This document shows, one piece after another, positions 7,099 to 31,413 of a stretch of 55,997 nucleotides of DNA. Below the pieces are notes generated by a model. The model ran no database searches. It was not told where the DNA came from and saw only the letters and a list, made by a program, of their open reading frames with translations. The stretch spans positions 1 through 55,997 of the IMG/VR virus record IMGVR_UViG_3300048597_000462; one strand, 5' to 3'. The DNA comes from a virus (lineage: Duplodnaviria > Caudoviricetes). Numbering within the stretch: position 1 is the stretch's first letter; the number at the start of each line of letters is the position of its first letter. A program made the position numbers and the translations under genes.

Positions 7099-7887
7099 CT
7101 AGGAGTCACCTAAAAGCAACTGGGTTCCTTGAGCCTTGCGGTACTGCGCCCAGAGTTCTTTCACTTTGCGAATATTTTCAGTGGGAATGTAGGGAGCCTG
7201 AACAGCACGGAAACCCTCACAGATTAGCCCTTGATGCTTGATTTGGGTTAACCATTGCTCAAACTGCTTCCCTGTTTTGAAGCCTAGTTCTCGCCCTAAA
7301 TCTGCGGTGGATTTACCCTCAAAGCTAACATTACGACCATTTTGGCAAATAACAGTCTCGGTAATCTTCTCTACCTTTTCCACTACGGCATCGGGGCGAC
7401 CTTGGATTAAAGCCAGAACTTGCGGGCCGTGCAAGTTCATGATGACTTCTGATTTCTCCATGATGAAACGCTGGTCAGACATCATGGAAGCATTCGCCGT
7501 GGCAATGTCAGCATGTAGCTTCATCAACTCAATTTGCTGAGTAAATTCCGGGTTAACCTTTTCGGCTAACTTCCACTTTTTCTCTACCTCGATAAAGTAT
7601 TGGCGGATAGCTTCCCCCTCCGAGGTCTCGGACATTAGCCCCAAGTGCTTTAAGCCATCGCAAGAAAGATGGATTTTTTCAACGGGGCGACCGCCGGTCT
7701 TTTCCACCGATTTGTGGTAAAGCTTGCCCTGAGAGGATTTCGGCAGTTTTCGCTTAGCCGAGTCCTTCCGGGAGTAACCTGTGATTTTCCATGCAACATC
7801 AAAATCCACTGGAAACTGATTGCCGTTTTGCTCGGCTTCATACCAGCTATCAATCAACGAAAAAATATCAGACGATACTATATCCAT
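7099..7887 (-). CDS. AntA/AntB-type antirepressor-like protein
   Basis: FPVDFDVAW..GY..K..AKRKL ... GEAIRQYFIEVEK; C-terminal half paralogous to 23191-23985. Confidence 0.8.
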   Translation of the reverse strand: MDIVSSDIFSLIDSWYEAEQNGNQFPVDFDVAWKITGYSRKDSAKRKLPKSSQGKLYHKSVEKTGGRPVEKIHLSCDGLKHLGLMSETSEGEAIRQYFIEVEKKWKLAEKVNPEFTQQIELMKLHADIATANASMMSDQRFIMEKSEVIMNLHGPQVLALIQGRPDAVVEKVEKITETVICQNGRNVSFEGKSTADLGRELGFKTGKQFEQWLTQIKHQGLICEGFRAVQAPYIPTENIRKVKELWAQYRKAQGTQLLLGDS

Positions 7888-8016
7888 AGACTGTTACCTC
7901 ATGGGGGTAATGGTTAAAGTCCTCCGGCTGACACCGGGGGCACACTTTATTGTAACTCACACAAACGTAGCGGTTTTTCGCATCACACCACCGCCGCCCA
8001 CCCTATAGATCAACGA

Positions 8017-8178
8017 CTAATCGCCAGGGTTGGACTCTTTTTCCTTGTCCACCATTTCCGCCAGCAACAGTTCGATGAGATTGCTAAGACTACGACGTTT
8101 GCGCTGGGCTATTCGCTCAGCCTCTTTTTTTAGATCCTCGGGGATGTATGCTCCCACTCTTGCTTTTGCAGTTGCCAT
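8017..8178 (-). CDS. ribbon-helix-helix (Arc/CopG-like) regulator
   Basis: RVGAYIPEDLK ... RSLSNLIELLL. Confidence 0.8.
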   Translation of the reverse strand: MATAKARVGAYIPEDLKKEAERIAQRKRRSLSNLIELLLAEMVDKEKESNPGD

Positions 8179-8256
8179 AAAAACTCCCAGTGCTTGTGCC
8201 AAGGTATCAATACCTAGCGACATTATAACAGACTCCGCCTTAATCCAGTGATAGAC

Positions 8257-8686: not shown

Positions 8687-8706
8687 GGGGCTTAGTGCCC
8701 CTTTTT
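8687..8706 (+). terminator. intrinsic terminator or attenuator
   Basis: GGGGC-TTAGT-GCCCC-TTTTT. Confidence 0.55.
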
Positions 8707-8709
8707 CTA

Positions 8710-9414
8710 ATGATTTCAATCAATGAGCAAGAGCAAGTACGGGCATGGTTAGAAGCTGAACGGAAAGGCGATCGCTTCCCCGTCGACTTTGACATCGCCT
8801 GGGTGATGGCTGGTTATGCAATGAAGCACCATGCAAAACGCCGGTTAACTAATCAGTCATCCTATCTGGTTTTGAATGAGGATTACAAAATAGACAAAGG
8901 GGCTGTACTTATCACCCAATCGGGTGAATCGACGATTTCTGGTCGTTCTAGCGACCGGATAGTAATGACTTGTGATGCTTTTAAACATTTCTGCCTCATG
9001 GCGCAAACTGCCAAGGGGCGTGATGTCCGGCAATATTTCATCGAAGCAGAAAAAACATTGCTAACATCCATCCCCACCTGTCAATTGTTAAACGAGGAAC
9101 TGCAAAATCTCCGCCAACAGTTGGCAAGGGCACAGCGACCGGCTGAGTCTGGCAAGTTTCAACTGCACTGCGACAAACTCCCCACCACCTACCGCTATAC
9201 CCTGGCGGTTCAGGTAAGCGAGACTCAATATATTGAGTTAATGCACTACACCCTGCCAGAGTGGATTGCCCAGGAAACTGACTATGAGAAATTCAAAGTC
9301 CTCCACAAGGCGGCGATAGAACCCATCACGGAGTTGATGCGGATGCTAAACCGGATGAGCCGGGAATTTACCCCGATAGATAAACCGGCGATCACCCGAT
9401 ACGCTAACCGATAA
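8710..9414 (+). CDS. AntA-type antirepressor-like protein
   Basis: FPVDFDIAW..GY..K..AKRRL ... GRDVRQYFIEAEK. Confidence 0.78.
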   Translation: MISINEQEQVRAWLEAERKGDRFPVDFDIAWVMAGYAMKHHAKRRLTNQSSYLVLNEDYKIDKGAVLITQSGESTISGRSSDRIVMTCDAFKHFCLMAQTAKGRDVRQYFIEAEKTLLTSIPTCQLLNEELQNLRQQLARAQRPAESGKFQLHCDKLPTTYRYTLAVQVSETQYIELMHYTLPEWIAQETDYEKFKVLHKAAIEPITELMRMLNRMSREFTPIDKPAITRYANR

Positions 9415-10984: not shown

Positions 10985-13543
10985 ATGCTTCAATTGCGAG
11001 ACTATCAAGAAAAGGTCAAGCGTGACCTTTACACTCTAGTCAGGGAAGGTTTTAGCAAAGTATTGGTTGTGGCCAGCACCGGGTCGGGCAAGTGTCTGGG
11101 GAAAGGAACCCCGGTCATGCTGTATGACGGCACAATCAAGCCAGTAGAAGAAATCAAGGTAGGCGATCAACTAATGGGCGACGATTCTACCCCCCGGACA
11201 GTATTAAGCCTGGCAAGGGGGCAGGAAGAATTGTTTAAGGTAACGCCGGTCAAGGGGGATTCATGGGTATGCAATAAATCGCATATTCTATCCCTCGTCT
11301 GTAATGCTAAAAAAGGAGCCTTGCAACACGGTCAAATTTACGATATTCCTGTTGGGGATTACCTCGAACTAGGGCGAACCCACAAACACGTTCTAAAGCA
11401 ATATCGAGTGGGTGTTACTGAGTTTGGCAACAATAGCGGCGATCTCCCTGTAGATCCATGGCTGTTGGGATTGTTCATCGGGGATGGGCATAAAACAGGC
11501 AATTCATTTCATCTCAATGACACCACAAAGATTGATGTTGCGGTTAAAGCTTCATCGGTATTAGTCGATTCAGGGTTTAGCCCTTCATCAAGCAGGGAAG
11601 GGAGTGCCCATGGAGTCCGACTTGGTATTCGCATGAATACCGCAACAGAAAGGTTTATCTATTTTGTGAGGAGGGCATGGGACGGTGAAATACTTAACGC
11701 CCACAACATTTACATCCCTCACAAGTACAAGACATCATCTATTGAAAACAGACTTGCATTATTGGCTGGGCTAATAGACTCTGATGGAAGCTTTGATGGA
11801 ATGTGCTTTTCATTTTCTACCGTCAGCGAGTCACTGGCGGATGATGTGTGCTTTGTTGCCCGTTCACTGGGACTTGCCGCCTATAAAGCATTTCGGGCAA
11901 CAAAATGTGATGGCAAGTCCTTCCCATCATTTCGGGTTAGCATTAGTGGCGATTTGTCCGGTCTGCCTTGCGCCCGGTGGCAAACGTCTGAGCGTAAGCA
12001 GATAAAAAGTGTTTTACGCACAGGCTTTTCTATTGAGTCGCTGGGTGTTGGCGATTACTATGGCTTTACTATTGACGGCAACCACCGATTTTTACTAGGG
12101 GACTTTACCGTTACCCATAACACCGAAACAGCCGTATCAATAGTGGAGGATGCCCTATCCAAGGGGAGGCGGGTTGCCTTTGTTGTCCACCGGGATAACC
12201 TAGTCAGGCAGACCTTAGCCCGGTTCCAGAAATATGGTCTAAACCCATCGGCGGTAAAAGCAGGATTTAAACCGGACTATGACAATCCCTGTCAGGTGGT
12301 CAGTTTACAGACAGTGGTACGGCGCAAAAATGCCCTGCATACCCTGGAGGACATCGCCATCTATGACGAAGCCCACATCACCGCTTGGTCAACGCTGGGC
12401 AAAGATTTAATCACCAATAACGCCCACCGGCTCACCATCGGGTTGACTGCCACACCTTGGCGGTTGTCCAAAAGGGAGGAAATGGGCGATTTATTCTCCG
12501 AGGTGGTGTGCGCTCCATTGCCCGCTCAGTTAATTGAGAAAGGGTTTTTGGTGCCGCCCCGGTACTTTGGGCTGGATGGCATTGATACCAGCGAGGTTAG
12601 AACCACCGCCGGAGATTTTAACCTGGGAGACTTGGGCGTTTTAACCAATGACCCCGAGGTGGTACAAACCGCTGTCAGAGAATGGCTACGTTTGGCTGAG
12701 AACAGAAAGACCATTGTATTCTGCGTGAACGTTGCCCACTCTCAGGCAATCGCCCGTGAGTTTAACCGTCAGGGCATCCCCGCCGCCCACGTTGACGGCA
12801 CCATGGACTCGGTTAAAGAGTGTCAGCCACTATATGACAAGCTAGCCAAAGGTAAAATCAAGGTCATTAGTTCTTGTGAGAAACTCTCGGAGGGCTTTGA
12901 CGTGCCGGATATTGGCTGTGCCATGCTGTGCCGTCCTACTAAGTCCAGGGCAAAATACGTTCAACAGATTGGTCGTGCCCTACGGATATTCCCCGGCAAA
13001 AAAGATGCGATAATCCTCGACCAAGCTGGCAACGTTCCCCGCCATGGCTTTGTGGAGGATTTAACCAAAGCTGATTTCAGGTTGTATCTTTCCACCGATG
13101 CCCCAAAGGGGGAGCCGCCAGTTAAAGAGTGCGAGTGTTGCCATGCCCTGGTCAGAATATCCGCCAGGGAATGCCCAGAGTGTGGCAACCCCTTTCCCAT
13201 TAAGGAGCGGGAAAAGGCAGTGGGGCAATTGACTGAGTTGCGGCAACCTATACTGGTTGAATCAGAGCTACCCTATCGCCATCAGCAGTACCGGCAATGG
13301 CGTTGGGAAGCGTACAAAAAGGGTATTGCACCGGGCTATGCCATGGCAAAGTACAGGGAAATCTATGATGATTGGCCACCCAACAACCTATCCCTGGGGG
13401 CAGTGTTTAAGGGCAAAAATGATGACAAAACCCAAAAGCACTTTCTAAACTACCTGGAAAGAATTGCCATCAAGAAAAGCTGGGATAAAAAGAAAATCAC
13501 CCAAGAATTTACTAGGGAATTTGGCTTCCCCCCGGCAATATAA
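10985..13543 (+). CDS. superfamily 2 (DEAH) helicase containing an intein
   Basis: LRDYQ, TGSGK|T, DEAH, TAT, EGFDVP, QQIGRALR, C-terminal zinc finger. Confidence 0.93.
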   Translation: MLQLRDYQEKVKRDLYTLVREGFSKVLVVASTGSGKCLGKGTPVMLYDGTIKPVEEIKVGDQLMGDDSTPRTVLSLARGQEELFKVTPVKGDSWVCNKSHILSLVCNAKKGALQHGQIYDIPVGDYLELGRTHKHVLKQYRVGVTEFGNNSGDLPVDPWLLGLFIGDGHKTGNSFHLNDTTKIDVAVKASSVLVDSGFSPSSSREGSAHGVRLGIRMNTATERFIYFVRRAWDGEILNAHNIYIPHKYKTSSIENRLALLAGLIDSDGSFDGMCFSFSTVSESLADDVCFVARSLGLAAYKAFRATKCDGKSFPSFRVSISGDLSGLPCARWQTSERKQIKSVLRTGFSIESLGVGDYYGFTIDGNHRFLLGDFTVTHNTETAVSIVEDALSKGRRVAFVVHRDNLVRQTLARFQKYGLNPSAVKAGFKPDYDNPCQVVSLQTVVRRKNALHTLEDIAIYDEAHITAWSTLGKDLITNNAHRLTIGLTATPWRLSKREEMGDLFSEVVCAPLPAQLIEKGFLVPPRYFGLDGIDTSEVRTTAGDFNLGDLGVLTNDPEVVQTAVREWLRLAENRKTIVFCVNVAHSQAIAREFNRQGIPAAHVDGTMDSVKECQPLYDKLAKGKIKVISSCEKLSEGFDVPDIGCAMLCRPTKSRAKYVQQIGRALRIFPGKKDAIILDQAGNVPRHGFVEDLTKADFRLYLSTDAPKGEPPVKECECCHALVRISARECPECGNPFPIKEREKAVGQLTELRQPILVESELPYRHQQYRQWRWEAYKKGIAPGYAMAKYREIYDDWPPNNLSLGAVFKGKNDDKTQKHFLNYLERIAIKKSWDKKKITQEFTREFGFPPAI
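11093..12121 (+). mobile_element. intein with LAGLIDADG homing endonuclease
   Basis: Begins CLGKGT, ends VTHN followed by T; LGLFIGDG and LAGLIDSDG motifs; 343 aa. Confidence 0.93.
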
Positions 13544-16099: not shown

Positions 16100-16546
16100 T
16101 TATTTAATGTTAAAGAATGGCTGTAAATCTACCACCCAGAAATATTCATATCTATTCCCAAGCTCGACCCTGATTTGAATTAAGTCTTTAATCTCATACT
16201 TTAACTCTAGTATTTTCTTGTAAACTCTTTTTCTTTTTTCGTCTGTCCACCCAATCAAAAGATACTTAAAACCTTTCTGACGTATTTTACTTAGATTATC
16301 TTTGATGACTTGAGTCGCCCAACTTACAGCTTCTATATTGCTTCCGGTGTATGTTGCGTTTATTCGCCGGGATCGCTTGGAATCTGCCCCTTTTCTTATC
16401 CAGTCATTAGCATATCTTCTATGGGGATGGGCAACCAAGGCAACCAACGCATACTCCGAGCTGTCACAGTAATACTTCTGTAACTTCAACCTTGCGTGTC
16501 GCCCATCGTTTAACTTTTTCTTGAAAACTAAATCAGCCATTGTCAA
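16100..16546 (-). CDS. hypothetical basic protein
   Basis: 148-aa ORF. Confidence 0.6.
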   Translation of the reverse strand: MTMADLVFKKKLNDGRHARLKLQKYYCDSSEYALVALVAHPHRRYANDWIRKGADSKRSRRINATYTGSNIEAVSWATQVIKDNLSKIRQKGFKYLLIGWTDEKRKRVYKKILELKYEIKDLIQIRVELGNRYEYFWVVDLQPFFNIK

Positions 16547-16617
16547 TGCTTAATTAGGTGGTCAATAATAAAGCCCGCTATGGGGACGGGCTAGGGGGCT
16601 AATCCTTGTTTGCCGGA

Positions 16618-16776
16618 TTAAAACGCTAAGTGATTATCGTCTTCCCATTCAGCCATCATTTGAAGAATAACTTCCCATTCCGAGTCGCATGGGCCATATA
16701 AATAACCACCCACGGCAATACAATAACTTTCATTTTCGCTAATTAGTCTTGGAGGGTTGCAGATTAATTTTGGCAT
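16618..16776 (-). CDS. 52-aa hypothetical protein (not in ORF track)
   Basis: MPKLICNPP...DNHLAF; start overlaps the upstream gene end. Confidence 0.45.
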   Translation of the reverse strand: MPKLICNPPRLISENESYCIAVGGYLYGPCDSEWEVILQMMAEWEDDNHLAF

Positions 16777-17114
16777 AATTTGTTGTCCTCAATGGTAAGC
16801 TCAATCAAAGTGCCTTTTATTCTCTTTTGAAAGTCAAGAATTTGTTTGCTATTCCCATCTGCTCTTAACTCGTGCAATAGATCGTCTATTGATTTTATCT
16901 GTTCGATTACGACTTTTATAGTCTGCAAAGATAGCTTTTCTCTCAGCCGTTGGATAATTTTTAATTGAATAACTTGCTCAACACTGTATATAACAATTGG
17001 TCGTTTTGGGTTACCTCGTTTTTCTGGAACCACCAATCCCGTGCTGTCCAGATAGCTAAGTTTTCCTGCTTTGATACCTGTCATGGTTATGACTTCTTGG
17101 CGGGTAAAAGACAT
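16764..17114 (-). CDS. MerR-type HTH protein
   Basis: FTRQEV..TGI...LSYLD.TGLVVP ... YS.EQVI; GGAG ribosome-binding site. Confidence 0.78.
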   Translation of the reverse strand: MSFTRQEVITMTGIKAGKLSYLDSTGLVVPEKRGNPKRPIVIYSVEQVIQLKIIQRLREKLSLQTIKVVIEQIKSIDDLLHELRADGNSKQILDFQKRIKGTLIELTIEDNKLCQN

Positions 17115-17134
17115 GATATTTCTCCGTTTGTTAT

Positions 17135-17551
17135 TTAACTTTTCCAATAATCATCCAAAGTAGTCCAATCTTTCTCTTGGATTTCCGAAGGATCAATCCC
17201 AACCTCTCGCCATTGTTGCTGGTACTCTTTGATGTCTTTTTCTTTTAGCCCCCAATGGTCAGTCATTCCGTTGGGGGTCGTGCCAGTGACACTCATTAAA
17301 TAGGCGACATCAAACATCAAGTCTTCACTTGCGAGACAGGTTACATAGGCACTATTAGCGGTTAACTCTGGATTTTTCCAGTCGATAATCAGCAACTCTA
17401 TTGGCTTCATTTTTAGTGCCAATTCAACCGCCGATCCGACTAATGGATGGGTATGGTCGAAAGATTTTGACTCAAGCTTATTCAGTTCTTTAATTGACTT
17501 GATATATTTTCTGACGATGGGCTTTTTTAGAATTTGTTCAACGGTAGTCAT
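17135..17551 (-). CDS. hypothetical protein
   Basis: 138-aa ORF. Confidence 0.65.
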   Translation of the reverse strand: MTTVEQILKKPIVRKYIKSIKELNKLESKSFDHTHPLVGSAVELALKMKPIELLIIDWKNPELTANSAYVTCLASEDLMFDVAYLMSVTGTTPNGMTDHWGLKEKDIKEYQQQWREVGIDPSEIQEKDWTTLDDYWKS

Positions 17552-17587
17552 AATGTTGTAGTGGTAAAGCCCCAGACTAGCCGGAGC

Positions 17588-17609
17588 GTTTGTGGTTAAT
17601 CAAACGTGG
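17588..17609 (+). promoter_or_regulatory. 22-bp motif
   Basis: GTTTG-TGGTTAAT-CAAAC-GTGG, abutting the stop codon of the P63C gene. Confidence 0.75.
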
Positions 17610-18377
17610 TTATTTGAGCTTGCCAGAAAATAGGCTTAATTGATATTTCCGGGTTTTACTCTGCTCTAGGAAAGCGACCACTTCACTAAGCGACCCGGCG
17701 CAGGTCATTAAAGTTATAACCTTTTTCAGTTGCTCCCCCAGTAATTCAATACCCTGCTCACTTAGATATTGATGGAGCTTTTTATTGGGGTCGGTTGCAG
17801 ACTGCCATGCCTTGATTTCCTCATAAACCCCTTTAGGCATATAGTCATAAACCATTTCCTTGGTGAGCCGTGCCCATAGCAGGGGACGTTTATGCCCAAT
17901 GGGTTGCAATCCGGTCAACCGGGATAGTTGGTCATAAAATTCAACGCTGAACCGGGGTTGCCAATCCGTGGGCACTGGCAAGCACATAATCTCGACAATC
18001 TCCCGCTCTGTTAACCGACGGGGAGGCTCCCATCCTAGAGTGGACTGGATAATGGTTCGCAGACCAACAGCTCCCAAAGCATCGTCGGTATCCTGGGCAA
18101 CCTCTTTCCCCTGGCGAGAGTAGTATTTAATTATGGCTGAAGCCAGCACATCGGGAATATGGTCTGCACTATCAAAGCTAAGCCCAGCAAAGGGTTTAAG
18201 GTTTTTGGGAGTGTTTTGGCCCGCACCCTCTATCAGTTTTAAAAGCTTGCGGATAGAACTCTCATGTACTCCACTTAGTCGGGCAGTGCCACGGCGACTA
18301 ACAAAGCCATGACCTTTTTCATCTACTGAAAATTCCTTGGCAATACTTTCGGGTAATTCAAAACTTACAATACTCAT
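17610..18377 (-). CDS. P63C-domain antirepressor-like protein
   Basis: WQPRFSVEFY.QL.RL, RP.LWARLT...VY, KLHQYL. Confidence 0.8.
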   Translation of the reverse strand: MSIVSFELPESIAKEFSVDEKGHGFVSRRGTARLSGVHESSIRKLLKLIEGAGQNTPKNLKPFAGLSFDSADHIPDVLASAIIKYYSRQGKEVAQDTDDALGAVGLRTIIQSTLGWEPPRRLTEREIVEIMCLPVPTDWQPRFSVEFYDQLSRLTGLQPIGHKRPLLWARLTKEMVYDYMPKGVYEEIKAWQSATDPNKKLHQYLSEQGIELLGEQLKKVITLMTCAGSLSEVVAFLEQSKTRKYQLSLFSGKLK

Positions 18378-18455
18378 CGTGAGCCTTCCTGTCTTAGGTT
18401 TACTGCCGTTGGGGACTCCCATCCCGTGAACGGCTTTCCCATATTATAACCTTCT

Positions 18456-18477
18456 GTTTGTAGCCACTCAAACGTGT
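18456..18477 (+). promoter_or_regulatory. 22-bp motif overlapping the -35 of the P63C gene promoter
   Basis: GTTTG-TAGCCACT-CAAAC-GTGT; minus-strand TTGAGT-17 nt-TATAAT. Confidence 0.75.
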
Positions 18478-18575
18478 TAAACGCCACACCCGCCCCGACT
18501 TTTTCGGATTAAGTCGTAAAAGTGGACTAACGCATTGCCATGGTGTTATCCAACCCCAACTAAGTATGAATACTC

Positions 18576-18615
18576 ATTAAGCGGTGCTATAAAGTCTTCT
18601 ATAGAGGGACTTAAC
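18576..18615. promoter_or_regulatory. 40-bp palindrome, copy 3
   Basis: ATTAAGCGGTGCTATA-AAGTCTTC-TATAGAGGGACTTAAC. Confidence 0.85.
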
Positions 18616-18691
18616 AGGGTAAGTAGTTACTACTGATGGTGGTAAAAGCCTTTGGTGGATTACTATACAGAGTCCTGCCATTGCCATTCCT

Positions 18692-20941
18692 ATGCAATCC
18701 AAATTGTCCGTTACGTCGAGTCATCAAGCGCAAGTAATCCGTCGGGACGGATCTTCAACACCGCTAAATATTGGCAAAATTCGGGCAGTGGTGGACTGGG
18801 CTTGTCTTGGGTTGGAAGTAAACTCCATCGCCCTAGAAGCGGGGCTAACCACTCGGTTAAGGGAAGGGATTAGCACTAGAGAGATTCAAGATAATCTGAT
18901 TAGCTGTGCTTTGGAAATGTGCAGTCCCAACGAACCAGATTGGCGTTATGTTGCTGGTCGCTTACACATTTGGAGTCTGTGGAAAGATACCTTGGTGCGT
19001 CGGGGTTATCAGTATGGTCAATATCTACGCACGGTGCAAACGAAGGTCACCAACGGGGAATATGACTCCCGCATCTTGACCTACAGCGAAGCGGAATTGC
19101 AGGAAGCGGGCTGTTGGATTAACTCGGACTGGGACACAGACTATGACTATGCCGGGGCGGTGTTGCTTACCAGCCGTTATCTTTTGCCCAATGAGTTGCC
19201 CCAGGAAGCATTACTCACCTGTGCTTTGTTGCTAGCTTCGGTAGAAGATCCCGATCGCCGTTTGCAATGGGCCAGAAGATTTTATGAGGCGATCGCTGCT
19301 CGACGCATTTCTTTAGCTACCCCTATTCTGGCTAATTTGCGAGTCCCCGGTGGTTCCCTGACCTCCTGTTTTATCGTGGCCATGGAGGATAACCTGGAAA
19401 GTATTTTTGGGGAAATCACCAATGCCGCTAGAATCTCTAAAAATGGTGGTGGGGTTGGAGTTAACGTTTCCCGCATCCGAGCCACCGGTAGTTGGGTAAT
19501 GGGTAAGCCCAACGCTTCCGGGGGAGTTATTCCCTGGACAAAACTGCTCAACGATACGGCGATCGCTGTTAATCAGGGGGGGCGCAGAGCCGGAGCCGTA
19601 ACCGTAGGGCTGGATGTGTGGCATTTAGATGTACCAGAATTTCTGGAAATGCAGGCGGAAAACGGTGACCAACGGCGTAAAGCCTATGATATTTTTCCCC
19701 AGTTAATCTTGCCCGATGAATTTATGCGGCGGGTAATCAATAAAGAAGATTGGACGTTGGTGGACCCCTACGAAGTTAGGGAAAAAATGGGCATTGAGTT
19801 AGCCGAGCTCTGGGGCGAACAGTTTGAAACTGCCTATCGGGAAATTGAATCAAACCTGGACACCACCATTACCCTCTACAAGCGTATTAATGCTAGGGAA
19901 CTGTTTAAGCAGATAATGCGTACCCAGGTGGAAACAGGGATGCCCTATCTTTCCTTTAAGGACACTATTAATAAAGCCAATCCTAATAAACATTTGGGTT
20001 ATATTCCTGGCACTAATCTTTGCTGTGAAAGTTTTAGTAACGTTACCCCCGGCCAGGATGCCCATTGCTGTAACCTAGTTAGCCTCAACCTTGCCAATCT
20101 AGACTTGCAAGACATTGCTGGGGTCAGTCAGATTGCTGTGCGGATGCTGGATAACACCATTGAATTGACTGCGCCTCCCTTTGCCGATGCCAAAAGCCAT
20201 AACAACAAATACCGCACCATCGGGGTGGGAGCCATGGGGTTAGCAGACTGGCTGGCTAAACGTCGTCTAAATTATGACGAGTTGGCAGACATTAACCGCC
20301 TATTCGAGGAAATTGGCTATTGGTGTACCCAATCCTCCATGGAATTAGCCAAGGAACGGGGAGCTTACCCCGCTTTTCCCGGTAGTGACTGGCAAAAAGG
20401 TTTATTAATTGGCTCCAAACCTGTCAGTTGGTTTCAAACTAATGCGGCGAAACCCGAACGGTGGGAAAAACTTGCCAACGATATTCAAACCCATGGCATT
20501 CGCAACTCCCACATCACGGCGATCGCTCCCAACACTTCCTCTTCCCTAGTCCAAGGTTGCACCGCCAGCATTTTGCCGGTCTATAGCCGCTTCTTTTACG
20601 ATAAATGGGCCAAGGGCACTGTCCCCATTGCACCGCCCTTCATTGGCAATTGTTTCTGGTTCTACCCGGAGAATAAAACCATGGACCAGCGCAAAGTAGT
20701 CAAAGCCGTGGCTGCCATCCAACAATGGACAGATACGGGCATCTCCATGGAGTTATTATTTAACCTCAATGCAGGTATTTATTTCCCAGAAGAACCGGAA
20801 AGAAGCCTCAATGCTAAGGACATTTTTGACACCTTGGTCATGGCATGGGAGTCCGGTTGTAAGGCTATTTACTATATCCGCACTGTGCAAAAGGATGACT
20901 TCAAGGATTCCTCTAATGGCTGTGTTGCCTGTGCTAATTAG
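18692..20941 (+). CDS. nrdA: class I ribonucleotide reductase alpha subunit with ATP-cone
   Basis: VIRRDG cone, ATP..SCF, TNLCCE, CNL, IAPNTSSS, YY, C-terminal CVAC. Confidence 0.96.
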   Translation: MQSKLSVTSSHQAQVIRRDGSSTPLNIGKIRAVVDWACLGLEVNSIALEAGLTTRLREGISTREIQDNLISCALEMCSPNEPDWRYVAGRLHIWSLWKDTLVRRGYQYGQYLRTVQTKVTNGEYDSRILTYSEAELQEAGCWINSDWDTDYDYAGAVLLTSRYLLPNELPQEALLTCALLLASVEDPDRRLQWARRFYEAIAARRISLATPILANLRVPGGSLTSCFIVAMEDNLESIFGEITNAARISKNGGGVGVNVSRIRATGSWVMGKPNASGGVIPWTKLLNDTAIAVNQGGRRAGAVTVGLDVWHLDVPEFLEMQAENGDQRRKAYDIFPQLILPDEFMRRVINKEDWTLVDPYEVREKMGIELAELWGEQFETAYREIESNLDTTITLYKRINARELFKQIMRTQVETGMPYLSFKDTINKANPNKHLGYIPGTNLCCESFSNVTPGQDAHCCNLVSLNLANLDLQDIAGVSQIAVRMLDNTIELTAPPFADAKSHNNKYRTIGVGAMGLADWLAKRRLNYDELADINRLFEEIGYWCTQSSMELAKERGAYPAFPGSDWQKGLLIGSKPVSWFQTNAAKPERWEKLANDIQTHGIRNSHITAIAPNTSSSLVQGCTASILPVYSRFFYDKWAKGTVPIAPPFIGNCFWFYPENKTMDQRKVVKAVAAIQQWTDTGISMELLFNLNAGIYFPEEPERSLNAKDIFDTLVMAWESGCKAIYYIRTVQKDDFKDSSNGCVACAN

Positions 20942-21229
20942 TCGAGCGCTTCCATACTTTCACCATAAATTGTCCTTGCCACCCGTAAAAGCACCAAATA
21001 ACCCATCAAATCCCGTTCAACGTCTTCAGTATCATCGGATTGCCCTGATACCAACCGGGATAACTTGTCGTCAATCCTGACCTTGATTTGCTCAATAGCA
21101 TCAGCCTTGGAAAAAATCCGCTGGGGGCATAAAGCACTATTTCCATACTTGCGATTTTTATCAAGCAACATGAACTTTAGGTCGTCGCATTCCTGGGCAA
21201 TGAACATTGCCGCATCGGTGTTACTGATC
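20938..21229 (-). CDS. nucleotide-modification-associated domain (DUF1599-like) protein
   Basis: KNRKYGNS ... VRIDDKLSR ... DLMGY. Confidence 0.7.
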
Positions 21230-21245
21230 ATAGATTTTTCCTTTG

Positions 21246-21476
21246 TCACTGATTTAACGTGGAGATGATTAACTTTGACTCCGGTGTTGGCTGCAAATTC
21301 ACCAACCAAGGTGACAATTCAACGTCAATGCCCAAGGATTCAATTTCGTCATACGTTTCCATCAAAATGTCCACCCAGTGATACCATCGCAAATTCATTT
21401 GCGTCCCCCTGCTTTCTTCTAAGCGTCGGTATAGGCGATGGCATCGGCGGAATAGGTGAAATACTTGCTTGGTCAT
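21246..21476 (-). CDS. hypothetical protein
   Basis: 76-aa ORF. Confidence 0.45.
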   Translation of the reverse strand: MTKQVFHLFRRCHRLYRRLEESRGTQMNLRWYHWVDILMETYDEIESLGIDVELSPWLVNLQPTPESKLIISTLNQ

Positions 21477-21639
21477 CCTTTTGACTCCTGCACTTGGCGA
21501 TCACCGGGTTGCCAATAAATGCAGAGGTTCCACCACCAAAGCAGAATCCGATAAAATGGGTGCCCGAATTTTTCAGACTGGCTTAGAAACCCTATCCCCC
21601 ATAAACCGGAATATTTAGACTCAATAAGCTTAAATTTCA

Positions 21640-22245
21640 TTAGCCTTTACTCTCCATGACTGTTTTATCTCCGTTATAGCGGCCGGTCTGGGCGTAGGTT
21701 TTACGGGGAACTCCCAATGTAAGGCTGAATATTAACTGCCCCATTCGTAGCCCAGGGTAAAACGGCAGAGGCTCAGCATCCATATTAATAATCTCCATGG
21801 TTAGTTTTGAACCGTGCCATTGGGGATCACAAAAACCCGCTTCCATATGTTCGTACCACTCTCGTCCCCGGCTTGACTTTAACCGGAATTGGGCGCAGAG
21901 AAATTCCGGCAGGTTAAAGGTTTCCAGGCTGGACACCAATAGGCGATCGCCAGGGGGTAGCCAGTAAGGGTTCTCAACATCAAAACTACTGAGGTCAATG
22001 GGGGCATAGCCGCAGACCTTGCCGCCATCAATAACATTGCGGACGGTGCGAAGTTTTGCCGTGGTGCCAATCCGAATATCGAGACTGGCCGGATTAATTA
22101 GCCTAGGGTCATACTGCTCTACCATTGGCAAGGGATTCCCAATCCAGTGCCCTGTAAATAGATACCCTAGCCTGATATACCAAGGCACTTCGCCCCGGCA
22201 TAACTGGTCAATTTGATGGTCAACTAAAATCATTTTATGCTCCAA
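21640..22245 (-). CDS. dcd: dCTP deaminase
   Basis: INPASLDIRIG, LKSSRGR, AGFCDP.W.G.LTMEI, GQLIF, GRY. Confidence 0.9.
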   Translation of the reverse strand: MEHKMILVDHQIDQLCRGEVPWYIRLGYLFTGHWIGNPLPMVEQYDPRLINPASLDIRIGTTAKLRTVRNVIDGGKVCGYAPIDLSSFDVENPYWLPPGDRLLVSSLETFNLPEFLCAQFRLKSSRGREWYEHMEAGFCDPQWHGSKLTMEIINMDAEPLPFYPGLRMGQLIFSLTLGVPRKTYAQTGRYNGDKTVMESKG

Positions 22246-22246
22246 G

Positions 22247-23056
22247 CTAAGGGGCTAATTTTGCTTTTTTCCAACGGTTTTTCAGATACCATTCAGCAAC
22301 TTCAGGGCACCATATCTTAAACTGCCCCATCAACAATTCGCAGAACCATTGGCACTCCAATTGAGCGTCTTCCTTTGCTCTTAAATCGAGTAGGTGCATT
22401 AGAGAGCGAACATTGACAGACATCACAAAATGTTGCCGGTAATCAAATGGTAGAGTTCCTCTACAGTGTTCTTCACTAATACCTTTACTGCGGTCTAGAT
22501 AATATCGCCAAGCCGCATTGTAAATGGTCTCGTAATGCTTGGTTTGGTCTTCTTCGGTGTAGCTATATTTCTCACCTTTTCGGTTGGTATATTCCCCTAC
22601 CGGACGAACATAGAAGTTCTCAAGAATCAATCCCCTGACCGCATCTCCTAACGGCTGATTATGGTAATTAGGCAACTCGTTTATTTCTTCGACCATATTG
22701 ACAATCCTTTGCCCGGTATAGCGCATCGACTGCACATCAAAGGTTATACCGACCCGGTGGGTTCTGATCTGTTGGATAAGCGAATGGGGGAAGTTGCCGC
22801 AGGCTAGGGTAATCTGTGGGGCTTCAAAGCATCCATAATGCCCCCTTCCTCCAGCCAATAAATGCTTAACAATCCGCCTCCCGGCGACTTCCTCAACGTT
22901 AGGATTATCTTTAAACAATTTGAACGCCATGCCGTCTTTCCATTGCAGGTCATCATAAACAAAGTTTTCGCAATAATCCTGGTGCATGGCGGCATAAATT
23001 ACCTGTTGAGGGTTAGGTGTTGCCGCTATAGTTTCAATCCTGAATAAACTGTCCAT
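22247..23056 (-). CDS. thyX: flavin-dependent thymidylate synthase
   Basis: GHYGCFE, QIRTHRVGITFDVQSMRY, EHCR, NVRSLMHLLDLR. Confidence 0.92.
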   Translation of the reverse strand: MDSLFRIETIAATPNPQQVIYAAMHQDYCENFVYDDLQWKDGMAFKLFKDNPNVEEVAGRRIVKHLLAGGRGHYGCFEAPQITLACGNFPHSLIQQIRTHRVGITFDVQSMRYTGQRIVNMVEEINELPNYHNQPLGDAVRGLILENFYVRPVGEYTNRKGEKYSYTEEDQTKHYETIYNAAWRYYLDRSKGISEEHCRGTLPFDYRQHFVMSVNVRSLMHLLDLRAKEDAQLECQWFCELLMGQFKIWCPEVAEWYLKNRWKKAKLAP

Positions 23057-23095
23057 CTTTGCACTTAATGTGTACAAAGTATTTTAAGGTTGCTT

Positions 23096-23117
23096 GTTTG
23101 TGGCTGAACAAACGTGG
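23096..23117 (+). promoter_or_regulatory. 22-bp motif in the Rha gene promoter
   Basis: GTTTG-TGGCTGAA-CAAAC-GTGG; TATAAT at 23122. Confidence 0.75.
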
Positions 23118-23190
23118 CGGGTATAATAGGAAAGCCCTTCACGGAGCGCAAACTCCCAAGGGCAGTAACCACTAGACAGGAGTGATCACA

Positions 23191-23985
23191 GTGAGTATTG
23201 TAAGTTACGACCCGTCCGAGTACCAGTCAGCTATTACGGTGGAATCCAACGGAGATGTCTTGGTCGTTGATTCCCGGTTAATTGCGCTAGACCTGGACAT
23301 TCAGCATGAAGTATTGATGCGGACGGTGAAGAAGCATCAAGTCAAGATAGAGCAACGGTTTGGAATAATCCGTTTTGAAAACGGAAAAATAAACGGGAGG
23401 GGGCGTCCTGAGAAGTTTGCATGGCTAACGGAAGACCAAGCAATGTTTGTGATGACACTATCCCGCAACTCGGATCGGGTGATGGACTGCAAGGCAAACT
23501 TGGTGGAGGCATTCAGTAAGGCTCGGCGGTTAATCCCCGCCCAGTCCGAAAAAATACGAGAGCTAGAGCTTCGGCTGAAAATTGCAGAGCTAGAAAAAGG
23601 TACTAGTGACAATCAGGCTTATTTGTTGGCACGGTCTGAGTTTATTGCCACGACTCAGGGGCCACAGATGCTTGCACTAATCCAAGGTCGCCCTGATGCT
23701 GTAGTGGAAAAGGTTGAGAAGGTAACAGAAACCATCATTGTTCGTGATGGTCGGAATGTCAGCTTTGAAGGTAAGTCCACCGCCGAGCTAGCCCGTGAGC
23801 TTGGTTATAAAAGCGGCAAGCAGTTAGAAGATTTTCTCCGCAAGCAAAAGCGGTCTGATTTAATCTGTGAAGGATTCCGGGCTGTTCAGGCTCCCTATAT
23901 CCCCACGACTAACCTAAGCGAGGTCAAAAAACTATGGAGTGAGAGCCGTAAAGCTTCCGGCACTCAATTATTCCTGGGCGAATAA
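23191..23985 (+). CDS. Rha-family regulatory/antirepressor protein
   Basis: VDSRLIA..L.IQH, GRPEKFAWLTEDQA, LVEAF; probable GTG start. Confidence 0.85.
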   Translation: MSIVSYDPSEYQSAITVESNGDVLVVDSRLIALDLDIQHEVLMRTVKKHQVKIEQRFGIIRFENGKINGRGRPEKFAWLTEDQAMFVMTLSRNSDRVMDCKANLVEAFSKARRLIPAQSEKIRELELRLKIAELEKGTSDNQAYLLARSEFIATTQGPQMLALIQGRPDAVVEKVEKVTETIIVRDGRNVSFEGKSTAELARELGYKSGKQLEDFLRKQKRSDLICEGFRAVQAPYIPTTNLSEVKKLWSESRKASGTQLFLGE

Positions 23986-23987
23986 CT

Positions 23988-24009
23988 CCACGTTCTAATT
24001 CACACAATC
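23988..24009 (-). promoter_or_regulatory. degenerate 22-bp motif, inverted
   Basis: CCAC-GTTCT-AATTCACA-CAATC directly after the stop codon. Confidence 0.5.
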
Positions 24010-24060
24010 ACCCGTCAGCAATGGCGGGTTTATTATTCCCCGTACAGTTTGTGACTGGTT

Positions 24061-24267
24061 ATGACAAAATTCTCTAAAACCACAAAAGAGGTTGCCAATC
24101 ACTATGGCGTCAGTGAGCGGTCAGTGATTCGTTGGATTGAAGCGGGGATGTTTAAATATGGCGTGGAGTATATTGATCTGCGGATGCCAGGGGGACGCAA
24201 GGCAAAGCTTAGATTCAACATTGACTCAATAGATAAGACCTTGGCTATTCCCCCGGAGAAACGTTAG
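24061..24267 (+). CDS. xis: excisionase-like HTH protein
   Basis: TKEVANHYGVSERSVIRWI; adjacent to the integrase. Confidence 0.72.
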   Translation: MTKFSKTTKEVANHYGVSERSVIRWIEAGMFKYGVEYIDLRMPGGRKAKLRFNIDSIDKTLAIPPEKR

Positions 24268-25336
24268 CATCCCGAATCCTCTCCCAGGCTTTGCTATGGT
24301 CGGCATCGGTCAACCATGCATTATAGGTGTTGGTATGAATCTGATGGCTGTGGCGCATTTGCTGGGCCGCCAGTCTGCTATCTAACCCTAACTCGATGGC
24401 CCGCCGTGCCCAACAATGGCGCAAATCATAAGGGTGGAACGGAATGTTAGACCGAGCAAAAGCACGGCTCACCCTCTGCCCATTTGCCCGGTTATCCTTG
24501 CCATTGATCCTGGGCATCCTGACATTTTTCAGGTCAAATAACTCCACCCAATCCGGGTATAGTGGCCAGACCTTCCCCCCGTGGGACTTACTGGTTAATA
24601 TCTTCCCCTCACTATTCAACCTCTCCCCGACATAGCAGATGCCAGTTTCTTGCAAGTATTCCAGGTCAACCAGAAAGACTTCGTGGTTTCGCAGGGCATA
24701 GGTAGCCATGACGCCATAGACCCAGTAGTAAGGGGCATAGGTGAACCGGTTTACTGCTTCAACTATTTCCTTGTCAGTGGGGAGATCCCTGGGGTTAACT
24801 GACCTTTGCCCATAATTGCCCTTTAACCGGCTAACATCCAAATCCACATCAAAACGGTCTGCCAGTAACTTGTAAGCTTGACAGGCCAATTGCCTGCCCC
24901 GGCTATTCGCCTCCGTGGTTAATATCCCCTCGGTTAATGCTTCCGTGGTCAGCACCGCATCGGGTAATCGCTTAAACCAGTTTTCATAATTACCCACCCA
25001 GGTTGTTTCAGTTTTTGGCGATCGCCCCTTTTCTGAAAAATACTGGGCTTTAAATATTTCCACCGCTTCCCCGGTGAGCAATTTTTCTCGCTTCGGCTCC
25101 CAGGTAAATTTTCCTTCCGCCAACCGTAGCCCCAACTTTTTCGCCTCTAGCTCAGCTCGCTTAATACCGGCTGGGTTAGCTTTCACCCCCAAGGCGATTC
25201 TTTGCTGGTGGGGGCGGGTTCTATTAGTCCCCGGCTTAGCCGGTAGCGTCGCCACCAGGTAAAGGCGATCGCCACGTTGCTCTACCCTCACCCCGACCCG
25301 CCCCGCCTTTAACCTAGCATTGACTTCTTCCAACAT
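24245..25336 (-). CDS. int: tyrosine integrase
   Basis: YALRNHE, HPYDLRH, MRHS..IHT.TY. Confidence 0.92.
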   Translation of the reverse strand: MLEEVNARLKAGRVGVRVEQRGDRLYLVATLPAKPGTNRTRPHQQRIALGVKANPAGIKRAELEAKKLGLRLAEGKFTWEPKREKLLTGEAVEIFKAQYFSEKGRSPKTETTWVGNYENWFKRLPDAVLTTEALTEGILTTEANSRGRQLACQAYKLLADRFDVDLDVSRLKGNYGQRSVNPRDLPTDKEIVEAVNRFTYAPYYWVYGVMATYALRNHEVFLVDLEYLQETGICYVGERLNSEGKILTSKSHGGKVWPLYPDWVELFDLKNVRMPRINGKDNRANGQRVSRAFARSNIPFHPYDLRHCWARRAIELGLDSRLAAQQMRHSHQIHTNTYNAWLTDADHSKAWERIRDANVSPGE

Positions 25337-28572: not shown

Positions 28573-29730
28573 ATGGTTTTTATTCAGGATTTTAAAGAGT
28601 TCCCATCGTCGGTAGAATTTACCGATGAAGGTTTTATGACCGCCACTGCCAACATTGCTAGAGTGGGTATTCAAGAATATCTAGGGCATGAGTTGGGCAA
28701 GAAAGGAGACAACAATGTTTACCGAGTATTGCGCCCGGTGGAAGTAGTTAAAGACTCGGTTAAGTCGTTTGTTAATAAGTCCATCACCGTTGGGCATCAA
28801 GGGCTAATTACGATAAAAAATGCCCATAAATTAGCCAAAGGATTTGTAAGGGATGCTTGGTTTGAGGACAGTACAGGCTGGATTAAGGCTGATGAGTGCA
28901 TTAATCATCCTGATGGCATTGATGCCTTTAATGATGGTTATCGCTGGCATAGTTGCGGATACCGAGCAGATATTAACTGGGAATCAGGAGAATGGATTGA
29001 TGAACTAGGGGTAATGGGTGAACCGGGGCAAAGCTATCAGTATGATGCAAGCTTTGTTAAGATTAAAGGCAACCATAATGCCTTAGTGAAAGACCCCAGA
29101 GCAGGGGATAATGCAACTTTTGATGAGGGTATTAATATTAATCAAGATTCAAGTGGAGTTTCTATGACTAAAAAGTATGAAATTCGACTGCCTGATAATG
29201 CGGTGCTGATGTTAGACGGTGAGAACGCCGCCGATATTAGCAAAGCATTTACAGAATTGCAGTCCAAGACCGAAAAACTTGACAAAGCCCTATTGGACTC
29301 CAATTCTAAAATTCAGGAATTGGAATCTAAAGTGAAGACTTTGGAGAGTGAAAAAGATACCCTGTCTGGTCAGTTGGAAGGGCTGAAAACTGTCAACGAT
29401 TCCAAGCCAGAAACTTCTAATGAACGGGCAGAATGGTTTGCCGTTTATGACAGTGTGCGGGGCTTAATTAAAGATGAGCCGTTTACTAAAACCATCGAAG
29501 ATTTGAAGATTGCCGGGATTAAATCTGTCAATCCTAACGTGGTACTGGATGGCAAATCTGCCGAGTTTATCTCCGGGATGTTTGAGTCGGTGAAAGACCG
29601 GCTAGCAGGCAAGTCTGTCCCTCCGAGCAAGGAGACTTTGAATGATTCTGCTCCGGCGGATTCTGACCCTATGGCAACTGCCGACAAGACCTATCGTGAG
29701 GCTGTAGAAAAAGCCTGGGAGAAATTTTAA
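28573..29730 (+). CDS. head maturation protease/scaffold (DUF2213)
   Basis: IARVGIQEY, SCGY, NHNALV..PRAG, coiled-coil C-terminus. Confidence 0.85.
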   Translation: MVFIQDFKEFPSSVEFTDEGFMTATANIARVGIQEYLGHELGKKGDNNVYRVLRPVEVVKDSVKSFVNKSITVGHQGLITIKNAHKLAKGFVRDAWFEDSTGWIKADECINHPDGIDAFNDGYRWHSCGYRADINWESGEWIDELGVMGEPGQSYQYDASFVKIKGNHNALVKDPRAGDNATFDEGININQDSSGVSMTKKYEIRLPDNAVLMLDGENAADISKAFTELQSKTEKLDKALLDSNSKIQELESKVKTLESEKDTLSGQLEGLKTVNDSKPETSNERAEWFAVYDSVRGLIKDEPFTKTIEDLKIAGIKSVNPNVVLDGKSAEFISGMFESVKDRLAGKSVPPSKETLNDSAPADSDPMATADKTYREAVEKAWEKF

Positions 29731-30474: not shown

Positions 30475-31413
30475 ATGCCAGCCATCACTCAATATCGAGA
30501 TTTTCTTAATAAGCAATTGGAGCAAAAGCTCCCCGGCGTGTTGATGCGCCGTTATCCCGGACTACCCTTTGCCAACGGTCAATATTTGCCCGCCATTGGT
30601 GACCTGGCGATTGGTGCCCAGTACCTCACCAAAGAAGTAATGGAGCAGTTTGGCGAGGCTCAGATTTATTCTGAAACGTCCTCCGACCTGCCCACTATCT
30701 CCACCACCGTAGATGAATTGGGATACCGGATTGTCACCTTTGTCTCCGGTGTGAAGTGGAATTATGCTGAGTTGGAGCATGCCAGCTTTGCCAACGTTGA
30801 TATCGTATCCCGTCGGACTCAGTTCCTGCCCAGGGTATTTGATGAGGCGATCCAGAAGTTTGTCCTAGCTGGTAATACCAATTTAGGTATTACTGGGTTC
30901 CTGAACAACCCCGATGTCCCTGCCGGTAACGACTCCTATGACCCTAACACTGGGGATGCAGACGATGCCATGGACTTTGTTTACCGGGTAATGACCGCTG
31001 TGCCCAACCGGACTAACCTGACCGCTGAATCGGCTGTGATGCTGGTGCCGGCTAAGCTTCGTCAGAAATGGGCCCGACTGGTTCTATCCGGTACATCCGT
31101 GACTGTGTTAGAACACATTATCAGCAACTATGGCAGTCAAAGTGGCGGTAGCCTCCGTGCCATTGTAGGCATTAACGAAATGCGATCTGACATTTTGGAA
31201 GCCTATGGCGTGAATGCCCCCGGCACCAACAAAGACATGGTGATGGTTGCTCCGGTTGACCCCACCGCCGCTGACCGTCGTTTTAACGCCCGCCGTGCCC
31301 TGCCTCTGGAGTATAACGATACGTTGTACAAACAGTTCTATCTGCAATCCACCAGTGAGGTTCGCTTTGAACGTCCTGATGAATTCCAGATTTTCAACAT
31401 TGCTAAGCTGTAG
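30475..31413 (+). CDS. major capsid protein (DUF2184-like)
   Basis: FL..QL, GEAQI..DLP, G....GITGFLNNP; gene order. Confidence 0.85.
   Translation: MPAITQYRDFLNKQLEQKLPGVLMRRYPGLPFANGQYLPAIGDLAIGAQYLTKEVMEQFGEAQIYSETSSDLPTISTTVDELGYRIVTFVSGVKWNYAELEHASFANVDIVSRRTQFLPRVFDEAIQKFVLAGNTNLGITGFLNNPDVPAGNDSYDPNTGDADDAMDFVYRVMTAVPNRTNLTAESAVMLVPAKLRQKWARLVLSGTSVTVLEHIISNYGSQSGGSLRAIVGINEMRSDILEAYGVNAPGTNKDMVMVAPVDPTAADRRFNARRALPLEYNDTLYKQFYLQSTSEVRFERPDEFQIFNIAKL

Follow-up and report, generated by a model that had tools for sequence, protein, structure and literature searches.

P1 c4 and P22 sar are trans or antisense RNAs that control ant, and control of antirepressor genes at the level of RNA is their feature in temperate phages. 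Hairpins of other kinds are boxB of lambda nut, a short hairpin formed near the promoter by the nascent early transcript, and the 5' stem-loops that stabilise bacterial mRNAs, as in ompA and T7 gene 10. This paper concerns a hairpin leader that stands before two genes, one for a P63C-domain protein and one for a Rha-domain protein, in IMG/VR virus record IMGVR_UViG_3300048597_000462, a single contig of 55,997 bases that was analysed as a whole and is called the window below. The two leaders very probably belong to a structured and previously undescribed family of leader RNAs in freshwater cyanophages, and the base pairing of the family's hairpin is under selection.

The closest model, by analogy, is the hairpin to which Aca1 or Aca2 binds. 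In acr-aca leaders a helix-turn-helix (HTH) protein binds both a repeat in the promoter and a hairpin just past the transcription start (PMC13551039). The Aca1 leader, as that source describes it, has an inverted repeat in its promoter and a hairpin that directly follows the transcription start, consists of two stems split by unpaired bases and stops some 20 nt short of the start codon. A different arrangement is found in T4-type phages, where PeSL cassettes place a sigma-70-like promoter, a stem-loop and a Shine-Dalgarno (SD) sequence before accessory genes and mediate modular shuffling (Arbiol et al. 2010, PMC2839356).

How do the window leaders compare with the Aca leaders? Like them, they are phage-borne, have an inverted repeat at the promoter, and fold into a lower and an upper stem with unpaired bases between, the stems covarying. 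The promoter repeats lie at 18473-18456 and 23096-23113, the hairpin comes after the predicted start and 27 nt before the start codon, the operon headed by the P63C gene ends in an HTH (MerR-like) gene, and MerR-like genes adjoin leaders in four contigs. The differences from that account are several. There is no relation in sequence, the promoter repeat here is unlike the hairpin, the genes downstream encode Bro-like DNA-binding proteins, the Rha unit has no HTH gene encoded within it, no Acr or Aca gene was recognised here by Pfam or PHROGs, and any bound protein is in this case putative.

Two leaders in one phage record

The first-pass annotation, made from the letters of the record, described the leaders of the P63C and Rha genes as a structured element that covaries between two otherwise unrelated genes. 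Both sequences, when re-read, are as it gave them. On the minus strand the P63C hairpin (18405..18434) has two tiers: an outer stem of 6 bp (GCCGTT 18434-18429 with AACGGC 18410-18405), a CAC bulge (18428-18426), an inner stem of 4 bp (GGGA/TCCC), a loop of 6 nt and a single bulged C at 18411. The Rha hairpin, on the plus strand (23134..23163), repeats this plan with GCCCTT 23134-23139 and AAGGGC 23158-23163 as its outer stem, followed by CAC, an inner stem of GGAG/CTCC, a 6-nt loop and a bulged C at 23157. Each is present in the minimum-free-energy structure of its leader (RNAfold). From one copy to the other, three of the ten pairs have changed on both sides and every pair is intact, which bears out the compensatory changes that had been claimed.

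The order of elements after the hairpin is the same in both copies: AGTAA(A)CC, AGACAGGA, TCAC and a start codon. In the P63C leader the tail AGTAAACC, an A-rich linker, the SD and TCAC lead to the start within 18375..18404, with AGACAGGA at 18394-18387, the SD (AGGA) at 18390-18387 and the ATG at 18377-18375. In the Rha leader (23164..23193) the tail is AGTAACC, AGACAGGA occupies 23174-23181, the SD (AGGAG) 23178-23182 and the GTG start 23191-23193, after TCAC; by the family alignment the start is the codon at 23191 and not the in-frame GTG at 23182. The hairpin begins 6-8 nt past the -10 sequence in both copies and leaves the SD uncovered.

The likeness between the two leaders ends, as had been noted, within the first codons (16 nt into the coding sequence) but begins further upstream than was claimed, at a GTTTG..TGGCT..CAAAC repeat. 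About 115 nt are common to the two genes, taking in the promoter, the two-tier hairpin, the SD region and the first five codons; the promoter and upstream inverted repeat had been missed as parts of the unit. The P63C copy of the repeat, GTTTG-AG-TGGCT-A-CAAAC (18456..18473, minus strand, aligned to the Rha copy), overlaps the -35 region of a predicted sigma-70-type promoter, TTGAGT-17-TATAAT (18443..18471; -10 at 18448-18443), recognised as a match to 10 of 12 positions in a consensus scan. The Rha copy, GTTTG-TGGCT-GAA-CAAAC (23096..23113, plus strand), lies upstream of a TATAAT at 23122..23127, where there is no good -35 and the consensus scan listed no site. The record holds exactly two copies of the leader, as judged over all 55,997 bases by blastn-short, nhmmer and a covariance model run with filters off.

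It would be natural to suspect an intrinsic terminator, from which these hairpins differ in having no U run: GUAA follows the stem instead, and neither hairpin is among the seven terminator-like sites found by a scan of 16500-24500. Such sites do stand behind the genes. The P63C-domain gene (17610..18377, minus strand; Pfam PF10546, E 2.2e-14; phrog_2384, phrog_1136) is the first of an operon that continues with a 138-aa open reading frame (ORF; 17135-17551) and the MerR-like HTH gene (16764-17147; Pfam MerR_1, E 7e-7), with a terminator-like site just after it (16592-16572, minus strand). The Rha-domain gene (23191..23985, plus strand; Pfam PF09669, Phage_pRha, E 1.7e-11) is followed at once by a terminator-like hairpin (24010-24029, plus strand), which argues that it is monocistronic. 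With such sites behind both, these are two self-contained transcription units. Their first proteins have only MSIVS in common (BLASTP E 0.37) and are otherwise unrelated.

A leader family and its base pairing

When GenBank phages were searched by blastn, the motif turned up in Planktothrix phage PaV-LD only, as one weak intergenic match with the same anatomy and new compensatory pairs. A covariance model built from this match and the two window leaders (R1, which scores each window hairpin at 91.8 bits) finds four sites in the whole PaV-LD genome, directly before ORF068R, ORF028L, ORF099R and ORF105L; ORF099R is followed by the Ant-like ORF100R, and ORF105L is a KilA-N gene. Matches to the model thus precede antirepressor-type genes in two cases of two in the window and in four of four in PaV-LD. 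R1 has no match in Aphanizomenon phage CL131.

Further members were retrieved with a degenerate pattern, in which the bulges were set along with a small number of letters in the stems, and five stem pairs were left free. It gave 41 loci in viral contigs, 39 of which match R1 at E <= 1, and 115 loci in genome contigs, none of them an exact match in a cyanobacterial species-representative genome and only four of them real, all on short contigs of metagenome-assembled genomes (MAGs). A CAC-bulge pattern gave 32 loci in metagenome contigs, including two identical real copies with yet another stem. Short patterns of 14-15 nt found 235 loci in viral contigs that are chance only, none better than an nhmmer E of 0.06, and two long patterns tied to the window sequence found nothing there. 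A second covariance model (R2), run over 55 sources (472,913 bases) at E <= 0.1, returned 74 matches, among which there are 45 distinct sequences and 20 stem haplotypes; the P63C and Rha hairpins score 66.8 and 74.1 bits with it. The family occurs in PaV-LD, in IMG/VR viral contigs and in a few short MAG contigs, with up to five copies per genome, and the window pair is thus no duplication peculiar to one phage. In 150 other Cyanobacteriota genomes, evenly sampled, R2 found none (its first-look filter left about 31 candidates per genome to be scored).

All matches lie on the sense strand, after a TATAAT-like -10 and before ATG, GTG or TTG. The hairpin they define has 6 + 4 bp, a C-R-C bulge on the 5' strand (GC in one subfamily), a single C on the 3' strand, and a GUAA tail; its loop of 6-7 nt differs among the 45 distinct rows, and the letters of bulge and tail stay. 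In an alignment of all 74 matches, 98.9% of 444 cells pair, as against 82.0% when shuffled, and none of 500 shuffles reaches the observed value. Changes on both sides are found at all ten pairs, and the covariation score is 0.586, compared with 0.253 for shuffled columns and at most 0.131 when partners are slid. A smaller alignment gives the same picture. Since both alignments were fitted to the covariance model, two independent checks were made. RNAalifold, run on 20 diverse members that had simply been aligned with MAFFT, arrives at the same hairpin and shows compensatory change at 8 of 8 pairs. And of the matches to the retrieval pattern, those in which all five free stem positions are Watson-Crick number 37 of 42 from viral contigs, 2 of 32 from metagenomes, and 4 of 135 from genome contigs, exactly the four real copies.

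No match in Rfam 15, together with these statistics, makes this cis hairpin with abundant compensatory change a family new to Rfam, as the first-pass annotation had supposed it might be. The motif is likewise not described in the literature searched, from which supplements, subscription journals and the original PaV-LD genome paper fell outside. The same Rfam check, which took in c4, c4-a1b1, sar and all the rest of Rfam 15, bears on the function that the annotation had assigned by analogy, that of P1 c4 and P22 sar. If the leader were the target of a trans or antisense RNA of that kind, its position before antirepressor-type genes would be an attraction, genes of this type being those concerned in P1 and P22 also. 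The whole window has no match at the gathering score, and the two leaders, at E <= 10, have only unrelated weak ones (CRISPR-DR47, E 0.36; RAGATH-32, E 1.9, 13 bits against 41.8; and a few others), none above chance; five related loci have no match on the leader. Nor is there a partner: by blastn-short no second complementary stretch in the record exceeds 11 nt (E >= 1), no more than chance provides, and a simple consensus scan of the strand opposite each leader finds nothing promoter-like within it. The window leaders are cis hairpins, differing in this from c4 and sar, and it is very improbable that they are antisense targets.

Several candidates for membership were set aside. The Rha homologue of CL131 sits inside an operon, without a leader. 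That of PaV-LD, ORF095L, reaches only 14.1 bits with R1 (E 0.69) and is not returned by R2 at E <= 0.1; it has (HQ683709, L237:1170-1278) a different two-tier hairpin after TATAAT, with an outer stem of 8 bp and an inner GGAG/CTCC, an analogous architecture. MAG chromosome OZ251536.1 contains repeated pattern matches (L262, L265, L304, L317, L321 and others) at multiples of 336 bases, which do not pair like the leader, have no relation to it and look like a long tandem-repeat gene. A separate observation concerns PaV-LD ORF105L (HQ683709 75130-75211, L242), whose start is annotated at 75186, upstream of the leader hairpin. By the alignment of the family it would be at about 75135, so that the deposited ORF is probably too long.

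Portability and the genes that follow

In two related phages one and the same 55-nt core, reaching from the -10 to GTAA, stands before different genes: PaV-LD ORF068R, of family phrog_32599, and a KilA-N gene on a viral contig (L374). The flanks are unrelated. Such identity argues for a portable promoter-leader cassette, and portability of the unit between genes was something the first-pass annotation missed. The GTTTG..TGGCT..CAAAC string also recurs, with different spacing, before leaders of the PaV-LD ORF028L type. That the two window leaders are themselves copies of a portable expression cassette, made up of promoter, structured 5' leader, SD linker and start codon, has a probability that I would put close to even but on the lower side of it. 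Leader copies that are truncated or lack an ORF are also seen (L369:7186-7260, L387:855-926 and L396:3365-3438), one of them without half of its 3' arm; gene loss or exchange has probably left these behind.

Cassettes of this sort call to mind PeSL, in which, too, a small repeated cassette before accessory genes is joined to different genes. As Arbiol et al. (2010) describe them, PeSL stem-loops are terminators with G/C tracts, variable in position and of no reported conserved architecture, whereas the hairpin here has no U tract, keeps a fixed two-tier shape, covaries, is predicted to be transcribed, and stands before one gene class in unrelated phages. Nor are these phages T4-like, as those of the PeSL account are: the 56-kb record encodes integrase-like and excisionase-like proteins, and PaV-LD is of 95 kb. 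A further reference on the PeSL cassettes of T4-type phages is Comeau et al. 2014 (PMC4122927).

One could go further and hold that the module acts only as DNA, either as a recombination joint or as a protein-binding palindrome, the RNA fold being incidental. Shuffling mediated by PeSL is a precedent (PMC2839356), and both the identical 55-nt core amid unrelated flanks and the degenerate or truncated copies (L369:7186, L387:855, L396:3365) would suit this idea. It is too much to ask of it, however, that it explain the pairing. A recombination joint alone needs none; covariation is found even where a dimeric protein would need no complementarity; stem haplotypes of several kinds are found together in one genome; the internal loop, with 3 nt on one side and 1 nt on the other, is asymmetric and strand-specific; and the element always stands in sense orientation before an ORF. 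The idea is accordingly improbable, at about the level of the improbable nut-like one taken up below or slightly under it.

What genes follow the leader? An ORF of at least 40 aa begins at the aligned start codon in 61 of the 74 matches; the other 13 have none, for reasons that include contig ends, remnants of 26 aa and degenerate copies. Classed against reference proteins, the 61 comprise 25 Ant-like proteins (PHROG anti-repressor families), 16 of phrog_32599, 12 KilA-N proteins (Pfam) and 8 that match no reference, namely the window Rha and P63C proteins, those of contigs L362 and L382, and four of unassigned type. Ant-like and phrog_32599 proteins are not alike (BLASTP E 21), and the latter have no Pfam match. 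An AlphaFold2 model of phrog_32599 (pLDDT 79.8) has eight BFVD matches at E <= 1e-3, to Bro-N, 'repressor domain' and Ant N-terminal proteins, and in the PDB nothing at E <= 0.001 by Foldseek, the weak best matches including the DNA-binding domain of Mbp1 (E 0.12). As modelled, then, phrog_32599 folds like Bro-N and Ant N-terminal domains. On this count 55 of the 61 proteins are Ant-like, of Bro-N fold, KilA-N, Rha or P63C, in agreement with the earlier claim that the leader belongs to antirepressor-type genes. That claim overlooked the two of the 61 leaders that head HNH-like endonuclease genes (L382, an HNH endonuclease, and L362, CapR/HNH-endonuclease-like) and the T5orf172/MUG113 domain fused to one of the KilA-N proteins (L366).

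This distribution bears on a third idea, that the leader is a nut- or put-like element, a nascent hairpin that loads an antitermination factor on RNA polymerase for read-through of the terminators that follow. The hairpin is short and promoter-proximal, like that of lambda nut, and co-directional genes do lie past the terminator-like sites, at 24061-24267 after Rha and at 16100-16546 and beyond after the P63C operon. An antitermination site would hardly be expected, though, in up to five copies per genome, each immediately before the ribosome-binding site of one gene of a single class. The loops, at 6-7 nt and variable, offer no fixed boxB-type sequence, and no boxA-like element was recognised, although no search dedicated to boxA was made; nor did an N-like protein come to light, though none was looked for. 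I consider this reading improbable.

The record itself is read as a temperate cyanophage. It encodes large and small subunits of ribonucleotide reductase, ThyX, a dCTP-deaminase-like protein, an ERF recombinase, and tail and head proteins, and the HIP1 octamer GCGATCGC occurs 20 times where 0.42 would be expected, a host-like signature that points to a cyanobacterial host. Its Rha protein is most closely related to proteins of CL131 and PaV-LD. The sequencing runs listed as containing the phage are all of DNA, with small shares only, and none is of RNA. The region 17000-24500 has no megablast match in the GenBank phage collection, and the Rha and P63C proteins, used as queries against viral contigs, found no related loci. 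Proteins common to the record and PaV-LD are mainly those of Ant/Rha genes, with ThyX and a ParB-like nuclease; weak PaV-LD matches are found to the ORFs at 28573-29730 and 30475-31413. Elsewhere in the record, at 10985-13543 on the plus strand, a ResIII/SNF2-type helicase gene contains an intein, with a Hint domain and a LAGLIDADG homing endonuclease (residues 37-321).

A third leader, that of an AntA-like gene (7099-7887, minus strand), had been put forward as analogous. Its leader (7888-7954, minus strand) does have a TACAAT followed by a hairpin, CCCCCGG/CCGGAGG with one mismatch, and then TTTAACCATTA; it is not, however, a member of the family by the model, for R2 with filters off fails to report it at E <= 10. 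Directly upstream of the gene, across a spacer of 129 nt, is a gene for an Arc-like ribbon-helix-helix protein (8017-8223, minus strand; phrog_582, E 1.7e-5). An Arc-like gene next to an Ant-like gene resembles the arc-ant arrangement of P22 immI, and the antisense idea dismissed above may claim the resemblance in its favour. The AntA-like and Rha proteins have a C-terminal domain in common (57% identity over 154 aa) and differ in their N-terminal domains, which is domain shuffling as it is usual among genes of this kind. At 8695-9414 there is a fourth Ant-like gene.

How the leader may act

The leader is most likely a shared 5' hairpin that either binds a protein or stabilises the message. 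It had seemed, by eye, that ACCU after the tail might pair with AGG(U) of the SD in a second helix that would hide the SD. In folding, the 39 distinct tails do not surpass their dinucleotide shuffles (mean z -0.005), and so the idea of an SD-hiding helix is rejected.

I propose, tentatively, the following. The cassette would consist of a host-type, sigma-70-like promoter, a hairpin that begins at the predicted transcription start or no more than about 10 nt from it, and an unstructured A-rich linker with the SD, leading to the start codon. The hairpin would be a common handle for one trans-acting factor, encoded by phage or host, which would set the translation or stability of all leader-bearing mRNAs together. 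The conserved sequence of the cassette would serve also as a recombination joint at which genes are swapped. What favours a shared protein-binding leader is that there is no U tract, that the SD is uncovered and the linker unstructured, that the letters of bulge and tail are kept, and that the layout is Aca-like. A loop free to vary while the letters of bulge and tail persist fits specific recognition. Action through a trans factor has somewhat less than an even chance.

The main rival is a plainer one, that the hairpin is an autonomous 5' stabiliser which needs no partner, capping the mRNA and shielding it from RNases that depend on the 5' end, so that the whole is a strong cassette like a moron or the T7 leader. 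The antisense, DNA-only and nut-like ideas are minor beside it. In the window copies and in the KilA-N subtype, where the hairpin lies 6-8 nt past the -10, it would begin 0-3 nt from the predicted end of the transcript, just as a stabiliser should. A linker without structure (mean z about 0) suits efficient initiation, and terminator-like sites bound both window units. It is otherwise in PaV-LD, where the hairpins of the Ant-type and ORF028L-type leaders lie 13-14 nt past the -10 and would leave an estimated 6-10 nt unpaired. Stabilisation would also leave unexplained the constancy of the C-R-C bulge, of the single C and of the GUAA tail amid changing stems and loop, and the restriction of the leader to one class of gene. 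I think it unlikely, though well ahead of the minor ideas.

A regulator that binds the hairpin has difficulties of its own. The constancy of the bulge is in part imposed, being fixed by the retrieval pattern and rewarded by the model; the sole independent witnesses on its invariance are some 15 distinct variants found by the model only, which have CGC or GC at the 5' bulge. Closely related phage populations contribute many of the sequences, so the 45 distinct rows are not 45 independent events, and the stem haplotypes number 20. The distance from -10 to hairpin varies from 6 to about 14 nt across the family, and the length of single strand at the 5' end is therefore not fixed. The transcription start and expression are predicted ones, and the control of expression that the first-pass annotation ascribed to the leaders is putative. 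No candidate for the binding partner stands out among the proteins common to the window phage and PaV-LD, and the MerR-like gene has no match in PaV-LD (tblastn, E 1e-4) and is absent from the Rha unit. All of this weighs against the proposal.

The MerR-like protein is nevertheless a candidate regulator. Homologues of its gene adjoin leader copies in four viral contigs (L365, L385, L399 and L402). In these contigs the homologues (36% identity; L365:4157-4684) are in an operon divergent from an ORF028L-type leader, and those leaders carry the same GTTTG..TGGCT..CAAAC promoter string as the window.

The trans-factor proposal has a more specific and more doubtful form, in which the hairpin would act as operator for an RNA-binding regulator not yet described, providing one post-transcriptional switch for free-standing Bro-like and homing-endonuclease-like genes. 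That the cassette travels with and between genes across unrelated phages, as a mobile regulon tag, belongs to the same form and is just as speculative. If it were true, the tag would keep DNA-binding genes that are selfish or toxic silent up to a fixed point of infection or induction.

Genes of the Bro, KilA-N, Ant and Rha types are among the commonest and least understood in phages and large DNA viruses, their expression and movement being largely unknown. The leader is a conserved, covarying motif specific to genes of these types. Since it is found in PaV-LD, a phage of Planktothrix agardhii that is in culture, it offers a handle on how such genes are regulated, on the factor that may bind the hairpin and on gene shuffling, which can be traced with it in the viruses of bloom-forming cyanobacteria. 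The motif is also a candidate for a new Rfam family, and for a compact expression part in cyanobacteria.

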